A stretch of DNA of 45,833 bases. It comes from Chitinivibrionales bacterium (lineage in GTDB: Bacteria > Fibrobacterota > Chitinivibrionia > Chitinivibrionales > WJMI01). The notes below the pieces were generated by a model. The model made no database searches, was not told the DNA's origin, and saw nothing but the letters and a program-made list of their open reading frames with translations. The stretch lies in the NCBI GenBank assembly GCA_014728015.1, contig WJMI01000147.1, positions 1 to 45,833 of the forward strand, written 5' to 3'. Each line of letters opens with the position of its first letter. Position 1 is the stretch's first letter. The translations under genes and the position numbers were made by a program. Positions 8,364 to 30,287 of the stretch are shown here, piece after piece.

Positions 8364-8401
8364 TTCCCATTCCTGAGAACCACGGTTGCCAATTCTGCGA
8401 A
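8364..8401. promoter_or_regulatory. Tandem enhancer-like (UAS) site, copy 1
   Basis: TTCCCA-ttcc-TGAGAA, 6 bp, TTGCCA-attc-TGCGAA; lies between two divergent sigma54 promoters. Confidence 0.65.
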
Positions 8402-8462
8402 AATCAATCACCTGCGGCTGAATTCCGGCCGCGGCCGGGCATGTCCCGGTCCGTTCCGCCGG

Positions 8463-8478
8463 TGGCATTCTTTTTGCA
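8463..8478 (+). promoter_or_regulatory. sigma54 -24/-12 promoter for the ferritin-like operon
   Basis: TGGCAT-TCTTT-TTGCA upstream of ATG 8546. Confidence 0.78.
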
Positions 8479-8545
8479 GAACCGAACACTGCAGGACGAA
8501 GCCCAACAGTATCCATCGTTCTGAGGACGAACCGGAGGACAGGGT

Positions 8546-9037
8546 ATGGGATTTATCGATATGGCCAAGCAGATCGAGCAGGAAGGTATCCAACATTACC
8601 ACAGGCTCGCCGAGGAAACACCGTACAGGGAAATGGCGGGCATATTCGAGTATCTTGCCCGCGAGGAACAACGGCACTATGACATATTCGATGCTTGGCA
8701 GAAGAAGCATAAGGCCCCGGAAATCGAGCGGACCGATATCGCCCAACGGGCCAAGAAGGTATTCGAGCGTCTCACGAAAGACATCGACAGTCTCGGCGTA
8801 GCGGCCATCGATCAGGATGATGCGTATTACAAGGCCCTCACGCTCGAGAAGAACAGCGTATCGGTCTATACCGAGATGCTGGCGAAGACACAAAGCCCGG
8901 AACAGGAGAAGCAGCTTCATTTCATTATCGGGCAGGAAGAGAGCCACATGCGCCTGGTGCAGTCGCTCATGGAATTCCAGCGGCATCCGCACGAGTGGCT
9001 CGAAAACGCCGAATGGCATCATTTCGACGAATACTGA
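8546..9037 (+). CDS. Ferritin-like / rubrerythrin-type di-iron protein (no rubredoxin domain)
   Basis: E..G..Y, EEQRH, LEKNSVSVY, EESH paired ExxH motifs; GGAGG RBS. Confidence 0.85.
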   Translation: MGFIDMAKQIEQEGIQHYHRLAEETPYREMAGIFEYLAREEQRHYDIFDAWQKKHKAPEIERTDIAQRAKKVFERLTKDIDSLGVAAIDQDDAYYKALTLEKNSVSVYTEMLAKTQSPEQEKQLHFIIGQEESHMRLVQSLMEFQRHPHEWLENAEWHHFDEY

Positions 9038-9086
9038 GCCGGCCGCGCCGCACAACAGCCGAACGTCCACCACAAGGAGACATGCC

Positions 9087-9434
9087 ATGGGACTCGAAAG
9101 TAAACGATGCACACCATGTGAGAAGGGTTCGCCCCCGTTGGATGAAGACGGGGAGAATAACCTTCTCAAACAGGTTCCCTGGGAAATCGACAGAAACGGC
9201 ACGCACAAGATTCGCAAGCAGTTCACCCTCGGCGATTTCAAGGAGGCCATGGGATTTGTAAACAGGGTCGCCGAACTGGCCGAACAAGAGAAGCACCATC
9301 CCGATATCCACATATCGTATCGCAACGTCACCATCGAACTGTCCACGCACGCGGTGGGCGGGTTGTCGGAAAATGATTTCATACTTGCATCGAAGCTTGA
9401 CAATATGGTGAAAGAAACAGGTGAACCAGCCTGA
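9087..9434 (+). CDS. phhB: Pterin-4-alpha-carbinolamine dehydratase
   Basis: CTPCE N-terminus, AEQEKHHPDI, THAVGGLSENDFILASKLD; AAGGAG RBS before ATG 9087. Confidence 0.9.
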   Translation: MGLESKRCTPCEKGSPPLDEDGENNLLKQVPWEIDRNGTHKIRKQFTLGDFKEAMGFVNRVAELAEQEKHHPDIHISYRNVTIELSTHAVGGLSENDFILASKLDNMVKETGEPA

Positions 9435-9496
9435 CTATTTCCACGAGCAGTACCATTCGCGAGCGAACACGCATCAAACCATGCAAGGAGGGACGG

Positions 9497-9925
9497 ATGT
9501 CTGAAGACAGGAACGCCCTGATAGGTGATCTGAACAAGGACCTGGAGCTCGAGTATGCCGCGGCCATTCAATACGTGCAGCACCAGGCGGTCATGACCGG
9601 AGGACAATTCGAATCGATCCGCAAGGAGCTTCTTATCCACTCCCAGGAAGAGATGAACCACGCGGTCATGTTGTCGGAGCAGATAGACTTCCTGGGAGGT
9701 ACGCCGACTGTCGAAGTCGAGGACCGGGCTGTGTCAGACAAGACTCTTGAAATGCTCAATCAGGACCTCGAGGGCGAGGAGAATGCAATCGCGCGATACA
9801 AGGCGCGCATAGCTCAGGCGGAGGGCATGCAGGAATACGGGCTGCGACGTGTACTCGAAGACATTCTCATTCAGGAAGAGGAACACAAGCGCGATCTTCT
9901 GACATCGATCAACGAGAGCAAGTAA
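9497..9925 (+). CDS. Bacterioferritin-like ferritin-family protein
   Basis: LELEYAAAIQY, EEMNHA..QIDFLGGTP, DLEGEENAIARY, EEEH ferroxidase ligands. Confidence 0.85.
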   Translation: MSEDRNALIGDLNKDLELEYAAAIQYVQHQAVMTGGQFESIRKELLIHSQEEMNHAVMLSEQIDFLGGTPTVEVEDRAVSDKTLEMLNQDLEGEENAIARYKARIAQAEGMQEYGLRRVLEDILIQEEEHKRDLLTSINESK

Positions 9926-9940
9926 CGAAAGGAACATATC

Positions 9941-10129
9941 ATGAAAGCAACCGTCGACAGGGACGCCTGCACCGGATGCGAGCTGTGCGCACAGACCTGT
10001 CCCGCCGTATTCGAAATGGACGACGACCTGGCGCGCGCCAAGATGGACGAAGTCCCGGCCACGGAAGCCGAAAACTGCCGTCAGGCGGCGGCGGAGTGCC
10101 CCGTGGATGCAATCAGCATTGACGAATAG
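9941..10129 (+). CDS. Single-cluster [4Fe-4S]/[3Fe-4S] ferredoxin
   Basis: CTGCELCAQTCP ... ECPVDAI; AAGGA RBS. Confidence 0.92.
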   Translation: MKATVDRDACTGCELCAQTCPAVFEMDDDLARAKMDEVPATEAENCRQAAAECPVDAISIDE

Positions 10130-10181
10130 ACGCCTGCGGTCAAGACCGGGCCAGGACGTGTGGCCCGGAAGCGGTTCCGGG

Positions 10182-11441
10182 ATGTCCATGGTAGTGGACT
10201 TGTATGAGCTTACCATGGCCCAGGCGTATTTCCTCGAACAGAAAAACGGGACAGCCTCTTTCGAGATCCTGGTTCGTTCCCTGCCGCCTCACTGGGGGTT
10301 TTTTGTCATGGCCGGGCTGACAGAGCTCGAGAGCTACCTGTCGGGTTTCTCGTTCAGCACCGATGATATCGCATCGCTTCGCGAGACCGGGCTTTTCGAT
10401 GATCGGTTCCTGACATTTCTCTACCAGGGAAAGCCCCGCATATCCGTTCGATGCATGCCCGAAGGCTCCGTGTTCTTTCCCGGCGAGCCCATTGCCGAAT
10501 TTCACGGGCCGGTGATAGACATGCAGATACTCGAAACCTACGTGCTGAACATCCTGGGATTCTCCATTCTTCAGGCCACTCTTGCCGCACGCTTCGAGCT
10601 CGCGTCCCGCGGAAAGCCGGTGCTCGACTTCGGCCTGCGCAAGGCCCAGGGCCCCGTGGCATCCATTCGATCGGCCCGCGGCGCCCAGATAGCGGGTTTC
10701 GCCGGAACCAGCAACGTGAAAGCGTCCCAGCTCCTCGATTTCAAGCCCTCGGGAACCATGGCGCATTCCTTTGTTCAGGCCCATGAAACCGAAGAACAGG
10801 CCTTCGAGGCCTTCGCCCGGGTATTTCGCGACCAATCAGTCTTTCTCGTAGACACCTATGATTCCCGGGAAGGTATTCGCACCGCCGCGCAAGTGGCCAA
10901 GCGACTGCTCGACCGGGAAAAAGTGCACATCAAGGGCATCCGCCTTGACAGCGGCAACCTGGCCGGGCTTGCCGGTATGGCGCGCGAACACTTCGACACC
11001 GAGGGGCTTGGGTTTCTCAAGGTGTTTGCCAGCGGCGGCCTCGATGAGTACCTCGTTGCCGACCTGGTGGAGCAGGGGGCGCCGATTGATGGTTTTGGCG
11101 TGGGAACATCCTTTGCCGTGTCGTCTCATGCGCCCGCCCTTGATATTACCTACAAGCCGGTCGAATATGACGGGCGCCCGACACGCAAAACTTCACCGGG
11201 AAAGGAAACGGTATCCGGAAGAAAATCGATTGAGCGGATACAGCATGAGGGCATCTTTGTGGAAGACCACGTTGTCTCCCTCGGGCATCCGGCCGACTTG
11301 CTCGTCCCTTTCGCTGGCGGTGAGCGCATTGATACGGTGCATACCCGTCTCAACCGGAATCTCGCCGGCCTCGCCGCCGCCTGCAAACGAATCAAATCGC
11401 CGTCCCCCTACCCCGTCATTTACGATTCCGGCCGGCAATGA
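10182..11441 (+). CDS. pncB: Nicotinate phosphoribosyltransferase
   Basis: DLYELTM, DFGLRK, GTSNV, GTMAHS (phospho-His), VDTYD, IRLDSG, ASGGLDE, FGVGT; exact start uncertain. Confidence 0.9.
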   Translation: MSMVVDLYELTMAQAYFLEQKNGTASFEILVRSLPPHWGFFVMAGLTELESYLSGFSFSTDDIASLRETGLFDDRFLTFLYQGKPRISVRCMPEGSVFFPGEPIAEFHGPVIDMQILETYVLNILGFSILQATLAARFELASRGKPVLDFGLRKAQGPVASIRSARGAQIAGFAGTSNVKASQLLDFKPSGTMAHSFVQAHETEEQAFEAFARVFRDQSVFLVDTYDSREGIRTAAQVAKRLLDREKVHIKGIRLDSGNLAGLAGMAREHFDTEGLGFLKVFASGGLDEYLVADLVEQGAPIDGFGVGTSFAVSSHAPALDITYKPVEYDGRPTRKTSPGKETVSGRKSIERIQHEGIFVEDHVVSLGHPADLLVPFAGGERIDTVHTRLNRNLAGLAAACKRIKSPSPYPVIYDSGRQ

Positions 11442-11463
11442 CTGCGTTCACCAACCGTCGCCG

Positions 11464-11997
11464 CTAGGCGCCGAGGGTCTCAACCACGTTTCGATACTTA
11501 CGGTGAATCATGCCCTCATCGAACCGAGAGAACTTGTCAAGCATGGCGGTCCGCTCATCCGGCGAAAGGTAGGTCATGGCAGCCGGAAAAAACCTCTTGT
11601 CTTCCTTTTCGATGTGAGCGGGATAGAACTCCGCCAGCGTCTTGAGCCTTTCCGCAACATCGTTCGCGGCGGAATCATCTCCGTCCACGTATCGTTGTTT
11701 GGCTTTCTCGAGCTCAGCAGTCGTTTTCCTCCCGAAGACATGCTCTTGCACGAGCTCGTCCATGACGGTCCGGTCCTCCGCCGACAACCCCTTATTGTCA
11801 AGCTCGGCAAAAAGGATGTCCTCCTCTTTACCGTGATGCGTCTGGTCGGCATAGGTACGAATGAAATCCACGGCCGCATCGACAAACAACGGATCTACAC
11901 CCCGGTTCCGGCGAATGCGCCCGATTTCTTTTTCGATACGTCCGATCATCCGCTCGATCAACCGGTGCTCTTTCATCAACGGGCCTTTGGGCTCCAT
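11464..11997 (-). CDS. Hemerythrin/HHE cation-binding domain protein
   Basis: EHRLIE, HHGKEEDILF, EH..GR, HIEKEDKRFFP; AAGGAG RBS before ATG 11997. Confidence 0.88.
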   Translation of the reverse strand: MEPKGPLMKEHRLIERMIGRIEKEIGRIRRNRGVDPLFVDAAVDFIRTYADQTHHGKEEDILFAELDNKGLSAEDRTVMDELVQEHVFGRKTTAELEKAKQRYVDGDDSAANDVAERLKTLAEFYPAHIEKEDKRFFPAAMTYLSPDERTAMLDKFSRFDEGMIHRKYRNVVETLGA

Positions 11998-12014
11998 CCT
12001 GTTCTCCTTTCCCT

Positions 12015-12650: not shown

Positions 12651-12707
12651 ATTTCATCACCTCGCTTTCCATGAGCCCGTGGGTGGACGCGCGATGCCGA
12701 TCGGTTA

Positions 12708-13283: not shown

Positions 13284-13336
13284 GGGACAAGGTCTCTTTC
13301 TCCCCGTACGCGTCCGCAGTCGCGACTCTCATAACG

Positions 13337-13352
13337 CGCAAACACGGTGCCA
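13337..13352 (-). promoter_or_regulatory. sigma54 -24/-12 promoter
   Basis: Minus strand TGGCAC-CGTGT-TTGCG, 53 bp before ATG 13283. Confidence 0.72.
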
Positions 13353-13384
13353 ATTGAGCCCTGAGAACCGCCTGAAGTCGGCAA

Positions 13385-13834
13385 TTATGCCTCTTTCCCC
13401 GTCTCCTTCTCCCCTTCTCCCTGTTCCCGGCGCGCGTCCATCATCCGCAGGGACTTGATGACCTTGGGAGCGACTTTCCGGGGAAGGTGGTCACTGCGTC
13501 GCACATGGAACCTGCGCCGCAGGAACGAGTCCAGCGTCCGGCGCCTTCCCTGAGCATCCCGCGCCTTTGATACCCGGTTCCACAGGGCATTGATAAACCG
13601 TAGCTGCTTCGGCGAGGCATACACGCGATCCCGTATCCCGGGCGTGCGATCGACAATCCGTTCGAGAGAGTCTATGAGCGACGAAGCCTGCTCCACGCTC
13701 AGGTCGCGGCTCGATGCCGCCCTTCTTCCGGCTTCATCACGGTAGGCCGACAGCATGACACGATAGTCGCTGTCGCCAAGATGCAGATTGCTCTTCAGCG
13801 CGTGGATTTTCCTCACCTGCGGCTCGGTAGCCAT
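13385..13834 (-). CDS. Mu-phage GemA/gp16 (DUF1018) family protein
   Basis: QVRKIHALKSNLHLGDSDYRVML..ASSRDLS..LIDSL and ASPKQLRFINALW..FLRRRF..KVIKSL two-repeat pattern; GGAGG RBS. Confidence 0.75.
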   Translation of the reverse strand: MATEPQVRKIHALKSNLHLGDSDYRVMLSAYRDEAGRRAASSRDLSVEQASSLIDSLERIVDRTPGIRDRVYASPKQLRFINALWNRVSKARDAQGRRRTLDSFLRRRFHVRRSDHLPRKVAPKVIKSLRMMDARREQGEGEKETGKEA

Positions 13835-13928: not shown

Positions 13929-13944
13929 AGCAAAGGGCGTGCCG
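13929..13944 (-). promoter_or_regulatory. sigma54 -24/-12 promoter for the GemA-like gene
   Basis: Minus strand CGGCAC-GCCCT-TTGCT immediately after the stop of the upstream gene. Confidence 0.68.
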
Positions 13945-13949
13945 AACCA

Positions 13950-16950: not shown

Positions 16951-19806
16951 CTACGGCTCGTCGTCTATTCCGTGAAGCACCGAGTCAATGGCTTCAAGCT
17001 CGCGGCCCGCCGCCGCGAACTCGCCTCGCCCCGCTTTTGCCCTATAGCTTCTGAGATACTCACGGATTTGTGCTGTGATTCTCGCCTGCAGCGCCCGTGG
17101 TTCCGTGGTATCCCGCACACCCGGCCTGCCTTCGGACGGTTCCCGAGGATGCTCTCCCAGGAGCCGAAGCAGCGCATTGTCGAAATCCTCCGCCCATACA
17201 ATGCCCTCCTGATCGGCAAGCGCCACACGCTTGAACTCGGGCAGCTTCGCATTCTCCGCCTGCAGGAAAATGGGCTCGGCATACAGCATGTATAACGTGT
17301 TCTGATTAAACAACGGAATGGCGAGCATATTGCCCCGCAAGACCTCGGATCCCCGCTGGCCCCACAGTGTCATCGCCTGTGACATCTCCGTGTCCTGATC
17401 AATACGTGCTTCGATCTGCCGCGTCCCGAGTACTTCGACCCCCTTGGGAAATGGAAAGACCACCAGCTCCCCGTAGTTGGGCATATCACACCGTCCGGCC
17501 ATCCAAGCATTCATGACATTTTTGTTGCGTGGCGTAAACGGCATCATGAGCACGAATTCCAGCTTGTCACTTCCCGGAAACTGGGTCAGCACATAGTAGG
17601 GCCGCACTGTCTGGAAATCCTCCCGGTATCGCTCGGTGGCGAACTGCCACACGTCCTCGCGCTGGTAGAATACATCTGGCTCCTGCATATGGTACGTTGA
17701 ATACATGCCCGCCTGGACAGTCAGCAGGTCAGAAGGATACCTGATATGCCTCCGCAGTGATGCGGGCATTGCATCGAGCGGCTTGAATACATCGGGAAAT
17801 ACGCGGCGATACGTTGAGAGAACGATATCGTCTTCGTCAACCGTATAGAAGGTTGTATTCCCGTTATATGCATCGACAACCACTTTGACCGAGTTCCGGA
17901 TATAATTGATACCGTTGAGTTCTCTGATGCCGCCACGATATCGTTCCGAATAGGGATAGCCACTGGAAACAGTATAGGCATCAATGATGTAGTATATCCC
18001 CCCGTCATCCCCGAGTACCGCGTACGGGTCATTGTCATATACCAGAAAGGGGGCGATCGTCTTTGCCCTGTCAACAATATGGCGATGAAACATCACGCGA
18101 GAGCGCTTGGTGAAATAGGTGGAAAACAGTATGCGGTGGCCGTCGAATTTCCACGCATACGCGATTCTTCGTACCAGCGGCCCTATACTCACCCCGCCGT
18201 CGCCCGCATAGTCTGAATAGACGTTTTCTTCTCCCGAGGGATAGTCAAATTCCTTTTCCGAAGTATTGACATACACGTGATCGTCGGTCCGCTCACCGTA
18301 GTACACGGCGGGACGCTTGAGTGACAGCGAGGGATCTCTAATTTCTGGTGGAATATTCTGTATGAGAAAATTCGGACCACCCTGAGGAAGAAACTCGTGC
18401 GCCGGCAGAAACACCATCCCGTATCCGTGCGTGTATTTGAGATGCGTGCTGACCCAGGTCTTCGATCGTGGATCGAGATCCCGCTTCTCCAGCTCGCGCA
18501 CGGACAGCATTATCTGCCGATAGTCATCACCGAGATGATACCGGTCAATGTCCACGTCGTTGAATTCATAGTACAGTCTGATCTCCTGCTGCTCCCTGAG
18601 ATTGTCCATCAAGGCGCGCCAGTCCCACAGACGGATATTGTCCAGGATAGGACGGTTCTGGTGTACTACATCCCGATTGATATTTCTTCCAACGTCGTAT
18701 TTCTTGTCCGTGATCTTGTCTTCATCAATGCCGTATGCGCGCTGCGTAAACTCTATGTTGTGCTTGATGTAGGGACGTTCAACGGTGATTTCGTTCGGAT
18801 TCACGACAGCGGCCGTGATAAGTCCTGGCAGGACCCAGTTGAGAATGCCCACAAGCGCCACCGCGATGCCGGGCACGACTGCGGTGCGCGCGGAAGCCCG
18901 TACGCCGAAATCATCGCCGAGTCGGATTCCCAGGACGAGCTGCCGGAATCTGCCAGAGAACGCCGCGATGATCGCCGATACCGCGGCTGCCGCGAGCACA
19001 ATGACGGTACTGTACAGGCCCAGCGTGCGAAACTTCGCATCCACATACCCGGCGCCGGTGACCGCCCCCTCAGTGGAATACAGGAGCTTGAAGAGATCGA
19101 GATAGAATTTCCAGGCAAACGCGGCGCACAGAAGGCCGGCGAGGACGAGAAGGTGTCTAGCAAGAGCTCCCGCCCGCTTCAGCGGAATCCTGCCCGGTTC
19201 GAACGAGCCGCGCGGCATCTGAACTGATGCCGCGTAGCAACCGACCGTGAAGATGCCGCCGATGAATATCAGAAGCGCAACCCATTGCTGCAGCAGAGCA
19301 AAAAACGGCAGAGAAAAGAGATAGAAATTGACGGGTTTGTTGAAGATAGGTTCGGTGACCGGCGATGCGGCCTGGTTGATATAGAGAAGCGCCGGATGCC
19401 ACAGCGCCCCGGCGCGCAGCCCCAGGAATGCCGCCAGCACCAGGCCGATTACGACCAGCATCCCGCCGCCCACGACGCCGCCATGCTTTTCCCCGGCAAG
19501 CCGCCGGTTCACTTCAAGAAAAACGAATGCGACACCAGCACCTATGCCGAAAAGCGTGAGCTCGGAAGTGAGTATTGTCCAGAATCGCCTGAGATAGCCG
19601 AGGTTTCGAAACCAGAGCAACTCGGTATAGAAATGCAGAAACGTGTTGAACGCAATGAGAATGACGATATCGATAAGGACGACCAGCAGCCCGCCTTTCA
19701 CCCGGGCGCGCATCTGCTCGGGAGTCAGCCCCTTGCCCCGGCCTACCGTCAGGACCAGCGGGATCCACCCCAACGAAAAGAACACTACTCCGATCCAGAA
19801 AAACAT
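16951..19806 (-). CDS. UPF0182 family membrane protein
   Basis: YTELLWF, FYLFSLPF, NIRLWD, DVDIDRY, YTHGYG, YYGE, NYIRNSVK, IRYP motifs; GGAGG RBS. Confidence 0.92.
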   Translation of the reverse strand: MFFWIGVVFFSLGWIPLVLTVGRGKGLTPEQMRARVKGGLLVVLIDIVILIAFNTFLHFYTELLWFRNLGYLRRFWTILTSELTLFGIGAGVAFVFLEVNRRLAGEKHGGVVGGGMLVVIGLVLAAFLGLRAGALWHPALLYINQAASPVTEPIFNKPVNFYLFSLPFFALLQQWVALLIFIGGIFTVGCYAASVQMPRGSFEPGRIPLKRAGALARHLLVLAGLLCAAFAWKFYLDLFKLLYSTEGAVTGAGYVDAKFRTLGLYSTVIVLAAAAVSAIIAAFSGRFRQLVLGIRLGDDFGVRASARTAVVPGIAVALVGILNWVLPGLITAAVVNPNEITVERPYIKHNIEFTQRAYGIDEDKITDKKYDVGRNINRDVVHQNRPILDNIRLWDWRALMDNLREQQEIRLYYEFNDVDIDRYHLGDDYRQIMLSVRELEKRDLDPRSKTWVSTHLKYTHGYGMVFLPAHEFLPQGGPNFLIQNIPPEIRDPSLSLKRPAVYYGERTDDHVYVNTSEKEFDYPSGEENVYSDYAGDGGVSIGPLVRRIAYAWKFDGHRILFSTYFTKRSRVMFHRHIVDRAKTIAPFLVYDNDPYAVLGDDGGIYYIIDAYTVSSGYPYSERYRGGIRELNGINYIRNSVKVVVDAYNGNTTFYTVDEDDIVLSTYRRVFPDVFKPLDAMPASLRRHIRYPSDLLTVQAGMYSTYHMQEPDVFYQREDVWQFATERYREDFQTVRPYYVLTQFPGSDKLEFVLMMPFTPRNKNVMNAWMAGRCDMPNYGELVVFPFPKGVEVLGTRQIEARIDQDTEMSQAMTLWGQRGSEVLRGNMLAIPLFNQNTLYMLYAEPIFLQAENAKLPEFKRVALADQEGIVWAEDFDNALLRLLGEHPREPSEGRPGVRDTTEPRALQARITAQIREYLRSYRAKAGRGEFAAAGRELEAIDSVLHGIDDEP

Positions 19807-19870
19807 TACTACCTCCCCTGCGATTTGCGCGACGCTATCATGGTGCGATCGCTGCGGTATCCTTCTTCGG

Positions 19871-21475
19871 CTACTTTCTCACTTTGAATGCCGTGAAGAA
19901 CGAATGGCCGTCCCGTTCAACACGGAGCATTATTGCATCGCCTTCCTTGAGCTTCGCGGTCGCGTTCCGGAAGTCCTTCACGCCTCGTACGGCTGTAAAG
20001 CCGCTCCCTTGCATCTTGACAGCCTTGATGACATCACCTTCCTTCAGGCCTCCCCGTGCATCCACCAGCGCACGGTCGACGTGGAGCACCACCACGCCTT
20101 CGACTCCGCGATCGATTCCATATTTCTCGCGCAGCTCTGGCGTGATGTTGGCGACTTTGATGCCTATCTTCTCCTCCACCGTCTTCTTGTCTTCCGCGCC
20201 TGCATCGCCGCCTGCCTCATCACCCTTCTTCGCAAGCTTCTCGATCCTGCCTTCATCACGCCGGCCCATTTTCACCTTCAGCGTCTTCTTCTTTCCGTCG
20301 CGCAGCACGCCGACGGTGACCATTTCTCCCGGCCTGATGAGTGCAACCATGTTGCGCAGCTCGTTGGCGTTGTCAACCCTGCGCCCATCTACCGAGACAA
20401 CCACGTCCCCGGTCTTCACGCCGGCCTTATCCGCCGGATCACCCTTATACACATCGGAAATAAGCACTCCCTTGGCGTTGTCGAGACCGAGCACGTCCCG
20501 GGTCGCCGGATCGATGTCCTGGATCCCCACGCCCAGCCATCCGCGCACCACCTCGCCGCGATAAACAAGGTCTTCCATGATCCGCTTGGCCATGTTAACC
20601 GGAATGGCAAACCCAATCCCCATGTACCCCCCGCTGCGCGAATAGATCATGGTATTTATCCCGACCAGCTCGCCGCGGATGTTGACCAGCGCTCCTCCCG
20701 AGTTACCGGGATTGATGGCCGCATCGGTCTGGATGAAGTTCTGGTATCTGTTTGCGCCCCCGACAGCGCGTCCGAGAGCGGATACAATGCCCGCCGTCAC
20801 CGTCGATGCAAGGCTGAATGGATTACCTACTGCGATGACCCAGTCGCCGGGCCGCAGCTTGTCAGAATTCCCGAGATAGGCTACCGGCAGGCCGTCGATG
20901 TCGCCCGCGATCTTGATAACAGCGACATCGGAAAGGGAATCGCTTCCCACTATCTCCGCTTCAAACACCCGTTCATCATTGAGCTTCACCTCGATTTCAT
21001 CCGCTCCTTTGACCACGTGAAAGTTGGTCAGGATGTGTCCCTGATGCGAGACAATGACGCCTGACCCGAGCCCCTTCTGACGATATTCCCGCTTCTCAAT
21101 CTGCGGTTCCTTCTGACGGGGCCTGTTCCGGCGCCTCGGAGGGTTGAAGAAGAAATCGAACGGACTGTCCTGCGAAAATGGATCGCCGAAAAAATGATAG
21201 AACGGATTATTCCTGAATACCAGCGTATCAACTTTCGTAGGAATAACCGAAACCACTGACGGCACCACTTTTTCGGCGACATCGGCAAATACCGTGGCGA
21301 AACGCGCGACTTCTTTACCGGTGCGGACCGAGGGCTTCTTCTCCGCCCCGAACGTAATGGAAGCTTCCTTGGGTTTTTCCGAACCTGCATCCGAACACAC
21401 CGTGTCCGCCACAAGCAGGCTTCCCAGGAGCACCAGCAGGACCGGTGCATGCCGCCGAATGCTTCTCACTTCCAT
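19871..21475 (-). CDS. degP: Do/DegQ family periplasmic serine endoprotease with two PDZ domains
   Basis: Signal peptide, [26 protein letters not shown], two PDZ; GGAGG RBS before ATG 21475. Confidence 0.92.
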
Positions 21476-21568
21476 ACAACCTCCCCAATTTCCTGAAATG
21501 ATGTGCTCATCGTCCCGTTTTTCCCCGGTGAATGCATTTTCTCCTGCAGACAATCGGAGGTATACCTG

Positions 21569-21584
21569 CGCAAATGACGTGCCA
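21569..21584 (-). promoter_or_regulatory. sigma54 -24/-12 promoter for degP-UPF0182
   Basis: Minus strand TGGCAC-GTCAT-TTGCG. Confidence 0.78.
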
Positions 21585-21644
21585 CAGGACTATCGCAGCC
21601 AGCGCCGGAATCCTTGCCCGCCGCATCTGCTGCGCATATAGTAG

Positions 21645-21682
21645 TTGGCGATTCTGAGAAGAGCCATTCTCAGTTATGCGAA
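21645..21682. promoter_or_regulatory. Tandem enhancer-like (UAS) site, copy 2
   Basis: TTGGCG-attc-TGAGAA, 6 bp, TTCTCA-gtta-TGCGAA; exactly 60 bp from each flanking sigma54 promoter. Confidence 0.68.
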
Positions 21683-21742
21683 AAAGATGGTGTTCTCCCC
21701 GGCTCGAACCCCAAGGACGCACATGTAATCTGCCCTGCCTTC

Positions 21743-21758
21743 CGGCATGAATCTTGCC
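21743..21758 (+). promoter_or_regulatory. sigma54 -24/-12 promoter for PAC2-ftsH
   Basis: CGGCAT-GAATC-TTGCC, 22 bp before ATG 21781. Confidence 0.68.
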
Positions 21759-21780: not shown

Positions 21781-22725
21781 ATGCAGGAAAAGAATACGAT
21801 CCACTTCAAGACACGCCCGATACTGGTTGCGGCATGGCCCGGGATGGGACAGGTCGGCCTCATGACCGTGGACTACCTGCGGCGCAAGCTGAACGCCAAA
21901 GTCTTCGCGGGCATGGACATGACCAGCGTCTTTGTCCCAGAATCAATTGTCGTGAAGGATGGCATAGCGCATTTGCCGGATACCCCGGAAAGCGTGTTCC
22001 ATTATCACGAAGACCCGGACATTATTGTATTCGAGAGCAATGCCCAGCTCGCCGGCAAGGAAGCGATGACAATCGCGCAGGGCCTGCTCAAAATTGCGGC
22101 GCAGTTCCATGTCTCGCGGATATACACGGCTGCCGCGTTCGCCAAGCCCATGAGCCACAACGAACGGTCGGAGGTACTGTTCGTGGGCAGCAACGATACG
22201 GTCAAAGTCGATCTCGAGAAATATGGCCTCTCACCCATGCCGGACGGAATGATTTCCGGCCTCAACGGGCTTCTTCTCGGACTTGCCGGTACGAGCGGTA
22301 TTGAGGCCGGCTGTTTCCTCGGAACGATACCTTCCTATTCGGGAAGCCTTGCATACCCGAAAGCAGCCCTTGAAATACTGACCAGACTCACGTCTGTTCT
22401 GGGCGTTTCGATAGACCTATCAGATCTCGAGGAGCAAGCCGGGGCGATTGACCGGCAGCTTGGCGAAATCGAAGATCGCATCCGACAATTGTTCCCGTCC
22501 GCGGTGGAGAGCAGTGAAGAACCCAAGGACGAAACACTGGCGGGCATGGATCACGATGATGTTCCGAAGTATATCATGGACAAAATCGAACGCCTGTTCG
22601 AAGAGGTAGCGCGGGATAGGTCCCGCGCCGTGGAGCTCAAGAATGAGCTCGTCAGATGGAACCTATACGATTTGTATGAAAAGCGCTTTCTCGAGCTGTT
22701 TCGAGACGATATGCGTCGGGAATAG
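21781..22725 (+). CDS. PAC2 (proteasome assembly chaperone-like) family protein
   Basis: AAWPGMGQVG, DYLRRKL, ISGLNGLLLG, YPKAA, IDLSDL motifs plus helical C-terminal extension. Confidence 0.85.
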   Translation: MQEKNTIHFKTRPILVAAWPGMGQVGLMTVDYLRRKLNAKVFAGMDMTSVFVPESIVVKDGIAHLPDTPESVFHYHEDPDIIVFESNAQLAGKEAMTIAQGLLKIAAQFHVSRIYTAAAFAKPMSHNERSEVLFVGSNDTVKVDLEKYGLSPMPDGMISGLNGLLLGLAGTSGIEAGCFLGTIPSYSGSLAYPKAALEILTRLTSVLGVSIDLSDLEEQAGAIDRQLGEIEDRIRQLFPSAVESSEEPKDETLAGMDHDDVPKYIMDKIERLFEEVARDRSRAVELKNELVRWNLYDLYEKRFLELFRDDMRRE

Positions 22726-22748
22726 CGGACTTGCAGAAGGGACCTCAC

Positions 22749-24683
22749 GTGTCTCCAGGTAGAAAAAGCACGAAGCGCCAAACCGGGAGCACCGAGAAAG
22801 AAAAGCCGGACAAGCAGCCATCGTTCGTCCGCGTCCTCCCGTGGCTCGTCGCGCTCATCGTCATGCTGGGACTTATGCTCACTTCGCGGCTGGGCGATAA
22901 CGCGCAGACAACAGTTTCCTACTCGGCATTCAAGCAGCAGATCCGGCAAGGCAACGTCAAAGAGGTGACTATCAAGGGCCTCGATATCTCGGGGCGCTTC
23001 ACATCGCCATACTCACCGGCCGACAGGGAACAGGAAAGCGGAGGCCGTACATTCACGGCATTCACCACGACCAAGCCGGCCATTGAGGATCCCGGTCTCA
23101 TCGAGTTGCTTGAGGAGAATGACGTGCAAGTCAATGCCGAAACCACGAGTGCGCCCGTGTTTCAGCGCGTGCTCATTCTTCTCGCCCCGTGGATCCTGTT
23201 CTTCGCGCTGATACTGTGGGCCAACAAACGCATGGCCGGCCAGATGAAAGGCATGATGGGCCGCGGGCTGTTCGGCGTGGGCAAATCCAAGGCACGGCGG
23301 TTCGAGAAGACCACGACCTCGACCAGCTTCGACGATGTAGCGGGGTTGGAGAACGCGAAACGCGATTTGCAGGAGATAGTTGAGTACCTGAAGGAGCCCA
23401 AGAAATTCACCGGCCTGGGCGCATCGATTCCCAAGGGCGTCTTGCTCATGGGGCCGCCCGGCACCGGCAAGACCCTCCTGGCCCGCGCCAGCGCCGGCGA
23501 AGCCGGCGTGCCGTTTTTCAGCGTAAGCGGTTCGGAGTTCATCGAGATGTTCGTGGGCGTGGGAGCATCGCGTGTCCGCAACATGTTCGAGGATGCCAAA
23601 AAGTCGGCCCCCACGATAATATTCGTGGATGAAATCGACTCGGTGGGCCGCACGCGGGGCGCGGGGCTCGGCGGCGGACACGACGAGCGCGAGCAGACCC
23701 TGAATCAGATTCTTCAGGAGATGGACGGGTTCGAGCCGCACGAATCGGTCGTGGTCATTGCCGCGACCAACCGCCCGGACGTTCTCGATCCCGCGCTCAC
23801 CCGGCCGGGGCGGTTCGACCGCCAGATAGTCCTGGAGCTTCCCCAGAAAAACGCGCGGCGCGAGATACTGCGGATACACACCCGGAATGTGCCGGTCGCC
23901 AATGATGTCGATTTGGATAACATTGCGGCGCGCAGCGTGGGGTTCTCCGGCGCCGATCTGCGGAACCTGGTCAACGAGGCCGCCCTCCTGGCGGGCAGGC
24001 GCGACAAGAAGACCGTGGATGCCCGCGATTTCGACAATGCCGCCGACAAGATCCTTCTCGGCGCGGAGCGGGAAGAACGAATTGACGACGACGAAAAGCG
24101 CATTATCGCGTACCACGAAGCCGGCCATGCGTTGGTTGCCAAGCTGCTCCCTGAAACGGATCCGCTCCAGAAAGTGACCATCATTCCGCGCGGCCGCGCC
24201 CTGGGCGTCACCCAGCAGGTGCCGGAGACAGATCGCCACAACTATTCCCGCAAATACCTCCTGGGACGCATCACCATGGCTCTGGGCGGGCGAGCCTCTG
24301 AGAAACTCGTATTCAGCGAGTTGACAAACGGCGCGGCAAATGATTTCAAGATGATCACCCAGCTGGCCCGGCGCATGGTCTGCCAGTGGGGAATGAGTGA
24401 CAAAATCGGGCCCGTAACATTCAGCCAGGGAGAAGAGCATATTTTTCTGGGACGAGAGCTGACCCAGGCCAAGGATTTCAGCGAGCACACCGGGCGCATT
24501 ATTGACGATGAAATACAGCGTATCGTGCGCGAAATGGAGCAGCGGGCTGAAAACCTCCTGAAAGAAAACCGGGACAAGCTTGACAAGATTGCCGAGGCCC
24601 TGTTGGAGCAGGAGACCCTGGAAAACGATGAGGTTGACAGGATCATCGGGAACCGCGCGCGGAAGCAGGCCGGAGAAGCCTGA
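22749..24683 (+). CDS. ftsH: ATP-dependent zinc metalloprotease FtsH (probably a stress paralogue)
   Basis: Two TM helices, [17 protein letters not shown] ([19 protein letters not shown]), HEAGH; GTG start inferred. Confidence 0.95.
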
Positions 24684-24975: not shown

Positions 24976-25005
24976 CGAAGAGAGGGAGAGCGGAGGATTG
25001 CCGAT

Positions 25006-26070: not shown

Positions 26071-26080
26071 CGGAATTCGG

Positions 26081-27379
26081 TCACTCCTGCGTTCCGCGCG
26101 CAGTTTTCAATCCATCCCGCACATGCCACTCGTAGTACCCTCTCCTGGCCAGATTCATCGATGATGCCTTGAGCGCGCGCTCCGCCCGCCGGCCGAACTG
26201 ATCGCCCAACTCGCCAAGCTCGTCCAACAGCTTCGCTTCCCCGTCAAGCGGCGCGGATGCCGCGCGCAGCAGCTTGACCGCAACGAGGAACGCGGGATAG
26301 TAGGCGAACTCCCGCAACACACGCTCTGACGATACCAGCGAGCCGGCGCCCGACTGGCTCAGCATCCAGTGCTGCCATTCCACCAGCTCCGCATACCTTC
26401 GAAGGCTGAAATTGTGTGTGGCGAATTCCGCCCGCCGCACGCCGCGCGCCGCGGATCGGCCGCCGTGATAGAACGAGTCCGGATGAAAGCAGAGCTCTTC
26501 GTCCAGTTCGAGAAAAGCATAATACGCATTTACAGGGTACTCCTCTTGCAGCGAAGCAAATATCCCGGCTTTCTCTTCTGCGAGATGCCCGTAGTACGGC
26601 GAGAGAAACTGGATCAGGTACAGCTTGGATACTGTCCGCGTGTACTTGCCCTCGTGCGCGCTCAGGCGAAGATACTGCAGTCCCGAATCGAGGCTGGCCC
26701 CGCGATTGAAGAGGCGAAGCGCCTTGCCCAGCACCGCCGGCGCCTTTGCCAGCGTGCAGTGGAACAGGCCCGGTCCCATGTACGCATCGCGGATATCGGG
26801 ACGGTCGGCGATAACGTCCTCGAGTATGCGCAGCCCCCGCAACCCGTCAACCAGTGCCTCGAACGGGCTGCGGTCTATCTTGAGCGTTGCGGTATACCCG
26901 AGAATGCCGCCCTTGATCAGATCATACGTGACATGAACAGAATCGGAAATTCTTGCGCGATCGTCGCACTGCCGGATCCCTTCCTTCGCAAGCCCTTCAG
27001 CTTCCCGTATCAACCGTTCCTTCTCTCGTTCCGATTCATATTCCCCGTTCTGAATGCGCAGGATCCTCGCGGAGGTCAGGAGCAGGCGGCTGAGGGGAGG
27101 CAGGTCCTCCTGCCGCTCGAGCCGATTGAGCTTTCGCCCGAAACGCTCCGCCTGCTTCCACGAAAACGCATGGATGAAATACACGACGCTGTCGGCGAGC
27201 TGTTCCTGCTGAAGCGACATGCCGGGATACGGCGGCGCCTGTGCCGCACGACCCGGCGTGTCTGAAGAATCTGTCTGCGCGGTGAGAAAAAAAACAAAAA
27301 GCAGGACCGCGGCAAAGGCCCGGGCGCGGGAAACCGTGCGTGCGTGAGGGCCGCTCCGCTCCTGCGGGGAGACCCTCAA
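26081..27379 (-). CDS. Hypothetical exported helical (TPR-like) protein
   Basis: N-terminal hydrophobic segment, helical repeats (DAYMGPGLFH..GLQYL); overlaps the sigma-factor stop by 4 bp; start uncertain. Confidence 0.6.
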   Translation of the reverse strand: MRVSPQERSGPHARTVSRARAFAAVLLFVFFLTAQTDSSDTPGRAAQAPPYPGMSLQQEQLADSVVYFIHAFSWKQAERFGRKLNRLERQEDLPPLSRLLLTSARILRIQNGEYESEREKERLIREAEGLAKEGIRQCDDRARISDSVHVTYDLIKGGILGYTATLKIDRSPFEALVDGLRGLRILEDVIADRPDIRDAYMGPGLFHCTLAKAPAVLGKALRLFNRGASLDSGLQYLRLSAHEGKYTRTVSKLYLIQFLSPYYGHLAEEKAGIFASLQEEYPVNAYYAFLELDEELCFHPDSFYHGGRSAARGVRRAEFATHNFSLRRYAELVEWQHWMLSQSGAGSLVSSERVLREFAYYPAFLVAVKLLRAASAPLDGEAKLLDELGELGDQFGRRAERALKASSMNLARRGYYEWHVRDGLKTARGTQE

Positions 27380-28338
27380 TTCATGTGCTCCTTGAGGAAG
27401 CTTCTCATGTATTCGGTGCGAAGCGTTTTCATGGCGGTATCCTTCACCTGTCGCACGCGTTCCCGGGTCAGCCCCAGGCCCCTGCCGATGTCGTCGAGCG
27501 TTTGAGGTTCGTCCCGCTCAATCCCGAAGTACCGCTTGACGATTTCCTGCTCTCGCTCGTTCAGTGTTCGCAGCATCCGTTTCAAGGCCCGGATGGTCGA
27601 TTCGCGGGCAATCCCCTCGTCCGGTGTATGTCCTTCCTCATCACCGAGGACCACGTCGCCGTACACGCTCTTGGCATCACCCTCCAGCGGCTTGTCCAGA
27701 GAGACATGCGGACGGTTGATCTTGAGCGCCAACTCCACGTCGCGCCGGCCCAGCTCGGTTTCATCCGCCAGCTCATCGATGCTCGGGGCACGGTGCAGGC
27801 GCTGGACCAGCCGGTCGCTTGCCTTGCCGACTTTGTATACGCCGCTGACCCGATTCAGCGGAATCTTGAATAAACGGGACTGATCCGCCAATGTCTGCAA
27901 AATAGCCTGTCGGATCCACCATACCGCATAGGAAATGAACCGGAAGTTCTTTTTCTCGTCAAACCGCCGGGCCGCTTTCACCAGCCCCATATTGCCCACA
28001 CTCACCAGGTCTTCCAGCGGCACCCCCTGCTCCTGGTAGTTCTTGGCCACACTCACCACGAAACGAAGGTTTGACCGGATCAGCTTCTCAAGCGCCGCGC
28101 GATCACCCTTGCGTATCCGCCTCGCCAGGTGGGCCTCCTGTTCCGAACTCAACGGGCGATAGCGCTGGATATCCTGCAGATACATATCCAGCATCGTCGC
28201 CTCTTTTGCCGTCTCGACTTTGGGCACCTTCACCGTATCCTTCTTGCGGCGGCTTCGCGCATGCGCGCGCTTTGGCCGGCGCCGCTTGTCGGGCTTAGGC
28301 CCTTTCCGCCGTCTTTTTTCGCGTTGGTATTCTGCCAT
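27376..28338 (-). CDS. RpoD/SigA-family sigma70 factor lacking region 1.1
   Basis: YLQDI, NLRFVVSVAK, GNMGLVKAA.RFD, FISYAVWWIRQAI, TLDDIG..LTRERVRQ. Confidence 0.92.
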   Translation of the reverse strand: MAEYQREKRRRKGPKPDKRRRPKRAHARSRRKKDTVKVPKVETAKEATMLDMYLQDIQRYRPLSSEQEAHLARRIRKGDRAALEKLIRSNLRFVVSVAKNYQEQGVPLEDLVSVGNMGLVKAARRFDEKKNFRFISYAVWWIRQAILQTLADQSRLFKIPLNRVSGVYKVGKASDRLVQRLHRAPSIDELADETELGRRDVELALKINRPHVSLDKPLEGDAKSVYGDVVLGDEEGHTPDEGIARESTIRALKRMLRTLNEREQEIVKRYFGIERDEPQTLDDIGRGLGLTRERVRQVKDTAMKTLRTEYMRSFLKEHMN

Positions 28339-28490
28339 GGAAAAAAAGCCCCTTTCCGCCGCGTGCAGCGGTGGCATGCATTGGAATGAGGGCACATCGC
28401 CCTCAGGCCACTAATCATATGTATTAGGCCATTAAAGCTTTCGATTATTCGGCGCATTTATTGCGGCCTGATCCGGGCGCCGCGACGGGC

Positions 28491-29033
28491 TCATTTGTCA
28501 TTGCCGCCGGGGGCAAGAAAGGCGGTAATGGTGGAATCAAGTCTTTGCGGATCAAAACAATCCAAAGAACGGTACCCGTCATCGCACGATGCCATGACTA
28601 CGCCATCCTCGTTGAGCAGGAAATAAGAGCCACGGTTGTCGATTGTCTGGAGCCGATCGATATAGGTCGACGCATCGCGCAACACCGGAAGAGTCACGCC
28701 CGTCCTACGGATAAATTCCCGCACTTGTTTTCCGGTGCCGTCCCATGCATCCAGCCCCAACACCACAAAGCTGTCCAATCGGTATTCCTGATATGCGTCC
28801 TCCAACCTGGAGGCGCTCTTGCGACAGTAGCTTCACCCGGAACCAAAAGCAAAAAGTAGAACCTTTGTCCCTCGATAATCGGTAAGGGAATGGGTCTTCC
28901 CCTCGGTGTCGCGGAGGTGAAAGTCCGGCAGGGAGTCCCCTACATGGGGAGACTCGTCACATACTGCGAATGCTACCGTCGCGAGGACGAGCATGCCCAT
29001 AGTACGCATTTTGCCGCGCAAAGCAGTCATCAT
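28491..29033 (-). CDS. Selenocysteine-containing redoxin (AhpC/TSA/TlpA thioredoxin fold), U-x-x-C active site; TGA at 28833-28835 = Sec
   Basis: ORFs 28833..29057 and 28491..28805 are in the same frame; the join reads VLLFAFGSG-TGA-SYCRKSASRLEDAY; VGDSLPDFHLRDTEGKTHSLTDYRG redoxin N-terminus. Confidence 0.85.
28795..28816 (-). promoter_or_regulatory. Bacterial SECIS-like hairpin
   Basis: mRNA GCG-CCUCCA-GGU-UGGAGG-A-CGC; G-initiated apical loop 25 nt downstream of the UGA. Confidence 0.7.
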
Positions 29034-29037
29034 TTGT

Positions 29038-29514
29038 TTATTTGCTGGTAGCCCCAAAATACGACTTCCTGAATTTCTCCAGCGATTCCCTTAGTTTCTT
29101 TGTGTTCGCAAGGTCGGTGGTCTGCTTGCACTGCATCGCGTAGACCAGCATCTCGTGAAGCGCGCTGAGTTCCGTGATGTACTTCTGATACGCCTTCTCA
29201 TTGTCCGGCGAGGTCGGCTTGATCCGCTGGTTCATGAAGTACTGGTACACAATCTCCTGGATCTTGTTCGCATGCAGCTCCTTGTTGTCGATCCATCGTA
29301 CGAGCTGATTGTAGTTCTTGTCCTTTGCGGCGCCCAACTCCTCGATTTTTTTCATCGACTTCTCAATCGTCCCGATATGCTCTTCAATCATGGATACACG
29401 CGCGGTATCATCATAAATACCGCATGGAATCTCACAATGGGCGAATACCCCGCCTGCCAGAAACAGAAATGCCAGACCGAATATTTCCGCGCTGGCCCCA
29501 CTTCGGATTCTCAT
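29038..29514 (-). CDS. sodN: Nickel superoxide dismutase precursor
   Basis: Ni-hook HCEIPCGIYD after signal peptide ending VFA; NQLVRWI..KE.HA, YF.NQRIK; GGAGG RBS. Confidence 0.92.
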   Translation of the reverse strand: MRIRSGASAEIFGLAFLFLAGGVFAHCEIPCGIYDDTARVSMIEEHIGTIEKSMKKIEELGAAKDKNYNQLVRWIDNKELHANKIQEIVYQYFMNQRIKPTSPDNEKAYQKYITELSALHEMLVYAMQCKQTTDLANTKKLRESLEKFRKSYFGATSK

Positions 29515-29601
29515 AAAAAATCCTCCCGTCTCCTTCACGCAAAAAGGGCTGGTGTCCCGACCCCATGCAATTCGTGCATCGGGCCGGGAATAGTGCATTG
29601 C

Positions 29602-30030
29602 TTACAAGGCCGCCTCGGCGGTCCAATAGCCGTGGACATTGCAGTTCTCTACTATCCGTACCTTGGATCCGTTTGCTTTCAAATGAAACAGCGAGCCGGG
29701 ATTCACTCCCGGTGTAAGGTACTGCCGCGAAACGTATGCATCATCGACGTAGCAGTCGATGAACTGGATGAAATGCTTTTCTTCCATGGGATGAATCTTC
29801 TCGCCGATTACCACGAGAACATCGACACATCCGGCGTTGGGTATCAGCGCGCACTCCTTCTTGACCGTTATGGCCGGGATGTGCTTGGCCGATGCTTCCT
29901 TGCTTTTCTCCTCCGACTCCTTGAATATGTTGTCGTTCTGCGTGAACTTGGTCGCTCCACAGACCGGGCACTTTTCCGGCGCGGAACCGAACTCGATATG
30001 GCCGCACGCATTACAAATGTAAACCGACAT
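29602..30030 (-). CDS. Superoxide reductase (desulfoferrodoxin-type) with N-terminal rubredoxin-like domain
   Basis: CNACG..CPVCG N-domain; KHIP, HPMEEKHFI, CNVHG (4 His + Cys); AGGAGG RBS before ATG 30030. Confidence 0.88.
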   Translation of the reverse strand: MSVYICNACGHIEFGSAPEKCPVCGATKFTQNDNIFKESEEKSKEASAKHIPAITVKKECALIPNAGCVDVLVVIGEKIHPMEEKHFIQFIDCYVDDAYVSRQYLTPGVNPGSLFHLKANGSKVRIVENCNVHGYWTAEAAL

Positions 30031-30175
30031 GCACTCCTCCTTCTGGTGAATATTGTTCGTCACTTTTGCGTTTTCTATGCAACATGACGCCGCGCAAATC
30101 TCCGGAGGACTTGCGCGATATGCGGATATGCTGACAGTAAAGAAACATCCTTTTCTCTCACAGGGTATACTTTTA

Positions 30176-30191
30176 TGCAATGAGCATGCCA
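30176..30191 (-). promoter_or_regulatory. sigma54 -24/-12 promoter for the SOR-sodN-selenoredoxin operon
   Basis: Minus strand TGGCAT-GCTCA-TTGCA. Confidence 0.78.
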
Positions 30192-30249
30192 ATCGAGCGC
30201 GAAGGCTGCTTGCGCCAAGCGCTCAAGATAAGCTATGTAAGGCGCCCGG

Positions 30250-30287
30250 ATGGCGTTTTTGCGAACTCCATTTCGCAGCAATGACAA
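30250..30287. promoter_or_regulatory. Tandem enhancer-like (UAS) site, copy 3
   Basis: ATGGCG-tttt-TGCGAA, 6 bp, TTCGCA-gcaa-TGACAA; 58 bp upstream of the sigma54 element. Confidence 0.62.

Follow-up and report, generated by a model that had tools for sequence, protein, structure and literature searches.

Tandem palindromes upstream of sigma-54 promoters outline a predicted general-stress regulon in a Chitinivibrionales bacterium

Palindromes, promoters and genes in the window

The stretch of DNA analysed here, referred to as the window, is contig WJMI01000147.1 (45,833 nucleotides; C73 below), which belongs to the 4.22-Mb, 428-contig genome of a Chitinivibrionales bacterium of the phylum Fibrobacterota (assembly GCA_014728015.1; 93.8% complete, 59% G+C). 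Three places in the window carry two 16-bp palindromes repeated with a 22-bp period and lying at short distances from words of the -24/-12 type used by sigma-54, and behind these words are found genes for metal and oxygen-radical defence and for protein quality control. The palindromes are discussed here as probable upstream activating sequences (UASs) of a bacterial enhancer-binding protein (bEBP), the candidate for which is encoded elsewhere in the genome.

All six 16-mers are read exactly as the first-pass annotation of this DNA had quoted them, at 8364-8379 and 8386-8401 (UAS-A, 8364..8401), 21645-21660 and 21667-21682 (UAS-B, 21645..21682), and 30250-30265 and 30272-30287 (UAS-C, 30250..30287). 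On a symmetric matrix built from these same sites they score 18.7 and 19.6, 18.4 and 22.4, and 15.4 and 19.2, respectively. UAS-A and UAS-B are each common to two divergent sigma-54 promoters, and UAS-C serves only one, because a tRNA-Pro(TGG) and a tRNA-Arg(TCT) gene (30403-30571, (+) strand) occupy the side facing away from that promoter. The consensus of the palindromes can be written as TTC-B-C-R-N-W-W-N-Y-G-V-G-AA, with tandem copies 20-22 bp apart. The degenerate pattern TTSNCRNNNNTGMSAA gives eight matches on the two strands of the window, against 0.62 expected, and none of 100 shuffled sequences reached this number; the matches correspond to five of the six sites (two of them palindromic and matched twice) and to one unrelated place at 11795. 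The 16-mer pattern proposed at first sight fits five sites and fails for the sixth (ATGGCG...), which begins with an A. Throughout the genome, pairs spaced by 22 bp with both members scoring at least 15 on the matrix are found only at these three places.

The -24/-12 elements of sigma-54 promoters follow a TGGCAC-N5-TTGCW-like consensus, in which the GG and GC doublets are exactly 10 nt apart. Five words of this kind accompany the palindromes, and the gaps that had been given for them, measured between the 16-nt promoter word and whichever 16-mer is nearer, were all reproduced. Thus, UAS-A is separated by 71 bp from CGGCACGGACTTTGCG (8277..8292, (-) strand), directed towards copA, and by 61 bp from TGGCATTCTTTTTGCA (8463..8478, (+) strand), directed towards an operon for rubrerythrin-like and ferritin-like proteins. 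UAS-B lies 60 bp from both TGGCACGTCATTTGCG (21569..21584, (-) strand), for degP, and CGGCATGAATCTTGCC (21743..21758, (+) strand), for PAC2-ftsH, and UAS-C lies 58 bp from TGGCATGCTCATTGCA (30176..30191, (-) strand), for the superoxide reductase (SOR) operon. The five words match 13-14 of 14 core letters, and three of them fit GGCATNNNNNTTGC exactly. The genome also contains rpoN, recognised by a PF04552 match (3.2e-60) in a 474-aa open frame on contig C147. When eight UAS-to-promoter stretches are aligned, only the two 16-mers and the -24/-12 word are conserved, at constant distance, and the spacer of about 60 bp is not; therefore, the units are not copied cassettes.

The identities that had been assigned to the genes of the five units were checked by Pfam, which agrees with them, the ferredoxin being recognised by its open reading frame (ORF) and the selenoredoxin only if a TGA codon is read as selenocysteine. 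On the (-) strand, the first unit begins with a CopA-type heavy-metal P-type ATPase (5901..8228), followed downstream on the same strand by RseC/MucC-like (5020-5553), DUF302 (4641-5096) and ferric-reductase-like (3242-4630) genes, which may belong to it. The divergent operon (8546..11441, (+) strand) encodes a rubrerythrin-like protein (8546-9037), a ferritin-like protein (9497-9925), a ferredoxin of 62 aa (9941-10129) and a nicotinate phosphoribosyltransferase (10107-11441). Between its first two genes there is a putative small open frame (about 9087-9434, (+) strand), whose product may be of the pterin-4a-carbinolamine dehydratase type. The unit at 16951..21511 ((-) strand) comprises a DegP/HtrA protease with Trypsin_2 and PDZ domains (19871-21511), whose start was chosen downstream of the predicted transcription start, and a UPF0182 membrane protein (16951-19806). 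Opposite to it, the unit at 21781..24683 ((+) strand) encodes a PAC2-family protein (21781-22725) and the FtsH protease (22731-24683).

The SOR operon (28491..30030, (-) strand) starts with a desulfoferrodoxin-type SOR carrying a rubredoxin-like N-domain (29602-30030). Its start is most likely at about 30030, which is Met55 of a longer ORF rather than the start of that ORF, leaving a leader of about 135 nt. It is followed by a nickel superoxide dismutase (Ni-SOD, sodN; 29038-29598) and, 5 nt past the sodN stop, by an AhpC/TSA-type redoxin with an in-frame TGA (28491-29033). The redoxin frame is open only when this TGA (codon 67, in F-G-S-G-U-S-Y-C) is read as selenocysteine (Sec). A GC-rich hairpin with a GGU loop begins 19 nt 3' of the TGA; checked as a possible selenocysteine insertion sequence, this hairpin folds no better than shuffled sequences (z = -0.53). 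Directly downstream of the operon lies a gene for an RpoS-like group-2 factor of the sigma-70 family (27376..28395, (-) strand), whose best NCBIfam model is rpoS_proteo, with 236 bits, below the cut-off of 378.7. No terminator is predicted in the 95-bp gap between the redoxin gene and this gene, and its membership of the SOR unit is uncertain; the sigma factor may form a second tier of the same response.

Two further good sigma-54-type words, which lack the motif, occur at 13337-13352 and 13929-13944 (both (-) strand). Between them lies a gene whose product has a phage Mu GemA domain (13385-13834, (-) strand), and this region may be what is left of a prophage that has sigma-54 control of its own.

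Recurrence of the motif in the genome and across the phylum

The matrix was run over the whole genome, and the enrichment near sigma-54 boxes that the first-pass annotation had anticipated is indeed found. Among the matches scoring at least 16 that do not belong to the training sites, 5 of 32 sit 20-200 bp upstream of a strong -24/-12 word, against 2.2% expected, with gaps of 60, 69, 50, 60 and 59 bp that are like those of the window. Six extra sites are recognised altogether (C378:2779, C222:14176, C222:21502, C222:29325, C266:2817 and C381:5232). A strong -24/-12 word lies 50-69 bp from five of them, and most have a weaker partner site 21-23 bp away. The total for the genome amounts to nine loci with about twelve promoters, of which three loci and five promoters are those of the window. 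The motif is present at 6 of the 78 strongest sigma-54 words of the genome and therefore marks a subset of them, not being a general property of sigma-54 promoters.

The genes behind the extra sites extend the list of functions. On C378 there is a PRC-barrel protein; on C222, a universal stress protein (Usp) together with an M50/CBS protease (behind a promoter with a poor -12 element), a six-BON protein followed by a 768-aa protein of no known family and a glycosyltransferase, and a Na+/H+ exchanger; on C266, a receiver-only protein divergent from a hemerythrin; and on C381, a 172-aa protein without a Pfam family together with a PRC-barrel protein. As a lead only, the Atlas neighbours of the 172-aa protein are ferritin-like, rubrerythrin and DUF2383 clusters. 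Some of the loci are grouped, with three UASs in a 22-kb stretch of C73 and three in a 15-kb stretch of C222, and similar UAS clusters occur near the bEBP gene in relatives (contigs C79, C108 and C151 of genome G019, and contig C7 of G030).

For comparisons between genomes, the composite pattern TTNNCRNNNNYGNNAAN{48,72}GGCAYNNNNNTTGC was used, consisting of the 16-mer skeleton, 48-72 nt and then GGCAY-N5-TTGC, with the reversed pattern as the control. It occurs at 8 places in the genome studied here, against 0 for the control, and a separate regular expression gives 9 placings (two at one promoter), 8 of which fall within the nine loci. Across 41 genomes, 104 matches were obtained against 4 for the control.

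Sixty regions around pattern matches were fetched from relatives. The distances from site to site peak at 20, 21 and 22 bp (7, 14 and 12 of 53 pairs, that is, 33/53), and those from the site to the GG of the -24 element cluster at about 51-54, 60-63 and 70-72 bp, approximately one helical turn apart, a phasing that is expected of an enhancer facing its promoter. The UASs of bEBPs are generally dyad-symmetric and paired, at about 80-150 bp from the start site and on a constant helical face, and the sites described here conform to this. Among the positions that the pattern leaves free, position 3 is occupied by C and the centre of the 16-mer is about 90% A/T, as in the window sites. The first genes behind these promoters encode a GH65 phosphorylase, a four-CBS protein, Dps/ferritin, ferritin-like and BON proteins, a fusion of HPF with a cold-shock domain, a radical-SAM protein, Fe/Mn-SOD, FtsH (in G037), PPK2, a rhomboid protease, PRC-barrel, DUF302, Nramp and CHAD proteins, an M20 peptidase, an outer-membrane efflux protein, an ATPase beta subunit and a Zn-dependent dehydrogenase.

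Several of these genes are homologues of the targets in the genome studied. Thus, a ferredoxin (56% identical) and a rubrerythrin-like protein (46%) stand behind motif-bearing sigma-54 promoters of relatives. The 768-aa protein of C222 (C222:17533-19839; L017:5534-7840) has a 51% identical counterpart at L220, the two belonging to two families of the order; these proteins of 760-770 aa match no Pfam or NCBIfam family, and in both genomes a motif-bearing sigma-54 promoter precedes the gene. Genome G019 shows a divergent arrangement (L287), with degP on one side of the UAS and a receiver-only protein and PAC2 on the other, matching the layout at 21569-21758, and in it an M50 protease and a six-BON protein adjoin the orthologue of the bEBP described below. 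The conservation upstream of orthologous operons that had been looked for extends to homologous stress genes, to the tandem of 20-22 bp and to the position relative to the -24/-12 word, and does not extend to most PAC2 homologues.

The candidate activator and its competitors

The sigma-54 activator domain gives 12 matches in the genome at E <= 1e-20, none of them on C73, in agreement with the earlier statement that the bEBP is not encoded in the window. The extra site on C381 is located 38 bp past the stop codon of a gene of the receiver-AAA+-helix-turn-helix (REC-AAA+-HTH_8) type (C381:5285-6727, (-) strand), which encodes a protein of 480 aa. It had been suggested that a copy of the motif might be found upstream of a bEBP gene: a copy does adjoin this one, and in this genome it lies downstream of the gene. 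The Pfam domains of the protein are, in order, Response_reg (3e-23), Sigma54_activat (1.6e-62), AAA_lid_14 and HTH_8 (4.6e-09). Its nearest solved structures are those of NtrC-family proteins of A. aeolicus (4l4u, 1ny5 and 3dzd), LuxO also being among the nearest. The protein stays below every NCBIfam equivalog cut-off, including those for LuxO, PrsR, NtrC, AtoC, ZraR, GlrR, NorR and PspF, the best scores being 327 bits for LuxO (cut-off 800), 319 for PEP_resp_reg (502.6) and 310 for ntrC (558.6). This fits the first impression that the motif was not that of NtrC, ZraR, NorR or PspF. At C381:6757-6772 ((+) strand) there is also a strong sigma-54 word, TGGCACATTCTTTGCG, without the motif; it is oriented towards a signal-peptide-like protein of 260 aa that has no Pfam family, and away from the bEBP gene.

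Orthologues of the C381 protein, set off by 48-63% identity (E <= 1e-130) from paralogues that do not exceed 40%, are present in 22 of 40 relatives of the same order and, in the phylum as a whole, in 62 of 296 genomes; none was found in the 151 genomes of the largest family. The group has two distinctive traits. In the 23 loci of relatives (L101-L123) and in the gene studied, the loop sequence G(A/S)FTS(A/S) replaces GAFTGA, with one exception (GSFTGA); the C381 protein itself has GAFTSA, in which Ser stands at the fifth position and F and T are unchanged. The C-terminal helix LG(I/L)S(L/I/V)..LYR(K/R)(L/I) is found in 22 of these 23 loci, the remaining one (L117) lying at a contig end where the tail is unreadable. 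Every paralogue read has a GAFTGA or GSFTGA loop and a different helix, and FTSA occurs as well in 6 of 80 unrelated NtrC-family loci of other phyla. A scan of named genomes with the C381 protein, made by an exact 8-mer method that can miss orthologues, returned only generic NtrC-family proteins (34-44% identity), none with the helix-turn-helix signature of the group. As leads only, the top Atlas cluster for the protein is commonest in Fibrobacterota, and the genome has one Fib_succ_major domain match.

The motif is linked to this group. At a matrix score of at least 12.5, the orthologue loci of relatives contain a match in 17 cases out of 23, whereas among paralogue loci the count is 4 of 26 in the same genomes and 2 of 11 in the genome studied; at a score of at least 16, the corresponding figures are 8/23, 0/26 and 2/11. 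In G011 and G029, the motif and a sigma-54 word are directed into the orthologue gene itself, which suggests that the orthologue would be autoregulated in several relatives. The kinases near the orthologues vary (dCache-HAMP, PAS and PAS-GAF). The receiver-only proteins under the motif are 36% identical to the receiver of the bEBP, and it may be speculated that they act as a phosphate sink or a feedback element.

Taking these data into account, it is proposed, with a probability of about 0.68, that the palindromes are the UASs of one NtrC-family response-regulator bEBP, with the C381 protein as the best candidate, driving a broad stress regulon. That the tandem palindromes serve as bEBP enhancer sites for sigma-54 promoters is in itself very likely, and it is probable that the orthologue group of C381 is the one that binds them. 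The circuit that we infer, including binding, activation, signal and physiological role, would work as follows. The receiver domain of the C381-type bEBP would be phosphorylated by a kinase, and the phosphorylated dimers would bind the two palindromes, two helical turns apart and with centres at about -95 and -117 relative to the predicted starts. The dimers would then assemble an AAA+ ring, make contact by looping with the sigma-54 holoenzyme held at the -24/-12 boxes, remodel it and bring about promoter opening, the central UAS serving divergent promoters at two of the window loci. In this way about 12 promoters at 9 loci would be switched on, leading to the expression of a set for oxygen-radical and metal defence (SOR, Ni-SOD, the Sec-redoxin, rubrerythrin- and ferritin-like proteins, CopA and hemerythrin), a set for protein quality control (DegP, FtsH, PAC2 and the M50/CBS protease) and classic stress proteins (PRC-barrel, Usp and BON).

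A different assignment of the activator would leave the sites as sigma-54 enhancers and give them to another bEBP of the genome (about eleven others are available), the position of the C381 gene being coincidental or the gene being a target. The number of activator-domain matches makes room for this, as do the downstream, not upstream, position of the C381 site, the two other bEBP loci of this genome with matrix matches of at least 16 and the occurrence of 2-3 members of the orthologue group in some genomes. Nevertheless, these two matches have no strong sigma-54 word within 20-200 bp, the orthologue loci are enriched in the motif over the paralogue loci (17/23 against 4/26), the composite pattern tracks the presence of the orthologue across 296 genomes, and the orthologue group possesses its own conserved helix-turn-helix helix; another bEBP is therefore considered unlikely, while being the most serious of the competitors.

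Two other proposals deny that the palindromes bind a bEBP at all. It is quite improbable that they are bound by a factor of another kind (e.g., a redox- or metal-sensing repressor or a co-activator) which modulates sigma-54 promoters activated from elsewhere. Many of the targets are oxidative-stress or metal genes, typically under repressor control, but the sites stand at fixed, helically phased distances upstream of the -24/-12 words without overlapping them, in tandem pairs two turns apart, midway between divergent promoters and only together with sigma-54 words. Moreover, to our knowledge every sigma-54 promoter needs a bEBP, and the alignment shows no other conserved activator sites, the palindromes being the only shared upstream element. 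Still less credible is a chance resemblance, or a leftover of promoter-cassette duplication that plays no part in regulation. The motif is certainly short and degenerate, and composite matches appear in orthologue-less genomes too, but the excess over expectation in the window (8 against 0.62, with no shuffle at 8) and over the reversed control in the genome (8 against 0), the conservation of the elements and not of the spacers, and the recurrence of the architecture in other families upstream of homologous genes all speak against it.

Several observations weigh against the proposal that a single C381-type bEBP governs the regulon through these sites. By hand tallies, the composite pattern gives 119 matches against 2 for the control in the 62 orthologue-bearing genomes, and 111 against 41 in the 234 others, so that even where the orthologue is lacking the matches are about 2.7 times as many as in the reversed control. 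Chance may be underestimated by this control, or else similar sites may be used by a more distant activator. Sixteen of the 111 matches fall in three incomplete genomes of orthologue-bearing families. In addition, the orthologue-bearing genomes of one family (f6) average only about 0.9 composite matches. The relatives are non-independent samples, and their matrix matches were chosen with a pattern derived from the window sites. At the level of the phylum, the link between pattern and orthologue thus appears strong but not clean.

Similar reservations apply at the level of single loci. There is no match of at least 12.5 at 6 of the 23 orthologue loci, and two paralogue loci of the genome studied do have a match of at least 16, with no strong sigma-54 word nearby (20-200 bp), so the linkage of the motif to the orthologue would be statistical and not exclusive. 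The gene neighbours of the orthologues vary between genomes. The L1 loop departs from the canonical GAFTGA, and its competence for contacting sigma-54 is assumed. Finally, in 29 relatives the best PAC2 homologue mostly lacks both the motif and the sigma-54 word, and no pair of the two was seen upstream of it; the genome studied has a second PAC2 paralogue, and a regulated copy is found in G019. Regulon membership therefore drifts between genomes.

Related systems and biological meaning

The proposed arrangement has well-known counterparts. In the NtrC/glnAp2 system, two dimer sites about two helical turns apart lie some 100-140 bp upstream of the -24/-12 elements, and the phosphorylated receiver drives oligomerisation and looping. 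The architecture is shared with the sites described here, whereas the recognition sequence and the regulon differ, and the C381 protein reaches only 310 of the 558.6 bits required by the ntrC model. PspF, ZraR, NorR and RtcR are likewise part of sigma-54/bEBP circuits devoted to stress, but each controls one or a few operons, with a different domain make-up or motif, and no NCBIfam model of theirs reaches its cut-off on the C381 protein. The Rrp2-RpoN-RpoS cascade of Borrelia burgdorferi similarly places a response-regulator bEBP and sigma-54 atop a global adaptive response, and the RpoS-like gene directly downstream of the SOR operon recalls this cascade; the direct sigma-54 target in Borrelia is described as essentially rpoS, whereas here many effector operons have a sigma-54 promoter of their own.

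The nearest look-alikes of the motif in print are the UASs of SypG and LuxO from Vibrio, TTCTCANNNTGMDWN and TTGCAWWWTGCAA as given in one source (PMC10162802). According to that source, both regulators are NtrC-family REC-AAA+-HTH proteins, with half-sites of the TTCTCA/TGAGAA-like and TTGCA/TGCAA types and two sites upstream of a sigma-54 promoter; the spacer is of 3 nt there and of 4 nt in the 16-bp palindromes described here, and the Vibrio targets are genes for biofilm polysaccharide and the Qrr small RNAs, not for stress protection (PMC10162802). Although LuxO gives the best-scoring NCBIfam model for the C381 protein, 327 bits against a cut-off of 800 means that this protein is not a LuxO orthologue.

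As regards function, the nearest precedent is DVU3305 from Desulfovibrio vulgaris. On the basis of DNA-affinity-purification chip assays (DAP-chip), this sigma-54 response regulator was placed under 'general stress responses', as reported in two studies (Rajeev et al. 2011, PMC3333781; Kazakov et al. 2015, PMC4641369). The studies describe a sigma-54-dependent bEBP of the REC type, autoregulated, whose loop (GAFSGA) is likewise non-canonical, with a binding site conserved in relatives and with targets that include UspA-domain and membrane proteins and are up under several stresses; the targets quoted are, by contrast, few, namely the operon of DVU3305 itself, DVU3298-3302, a transporter/PFL operon and kdp (PMC3333781, PMC4641369). 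The comparison of DVU3305 with the C381 protein is one of described features, the motif of DVU3305 being given in a figure and in Table S9 (PMC3333781). It has also been linked to a Lon-protease response regulator (PMC3333781, PMC4641369). No Lon-type response regulator was noticed beside the bEBP gene in eight neighbourhoods, where no search was aimed at one. A literature search, whose reach did not include subscription journals, RegPrecise or the DVU3305 site table, found no description of the motif, the regulon or the loop variant.

The first-pass annotation had proposed a single programme against oxygen, metal and proteotoxic stress. A shared stress regulon is supported, and the gene set is wider than was then thought, comprising also PRC-barrel, Usp and BON proteins, a Na+/H+ exchanger and hemerythrin, so that it looks like a general stress or dormancy programme. 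On the evidence of sequence architecture, enrichment, conservation and linkage, this is a real, conserved and as yet unnamed sigma-54 general-stress regulon of the bEBP/sigma-54 kind, predicted for several families of a phylum that has been little studied.

General stress responses are usually credited to alternative factors of the sigma-70 family. A broad stress regulon wired straight to sigma-54 promoters through one receiver-type activator would represent another kind of design, since a sigma-54 promoter stays silent unless its activator is present. More tentatively, sigma-54 together with a C381-type regulator might be the master switch of general stress or dormancy in the environmental lineages of the phylum, taking the place of RpoS, SigB or EcfG. 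It would then directly drive the genes for SOD/SOR, Dps/ferritins, HPF, BON, PRC-barrel, Usp, FtsH and DegP and for trehalose and polyphosphate metabolism, and it may feed an RpoS-like second tier.

These results provide a concrete candidate regulator, a predicted binding motif and a target list for a poorly studied and largely uncultured lineage. They would also give a functional context to proteins that have lacked one, such as the conserved 768-aa protein, the 172-aa ferritin-like protein, PAC2 and UPF0182, and they draw attention to a natural variant of the GAFTGA loop that is kept across a whole group of orthologues.

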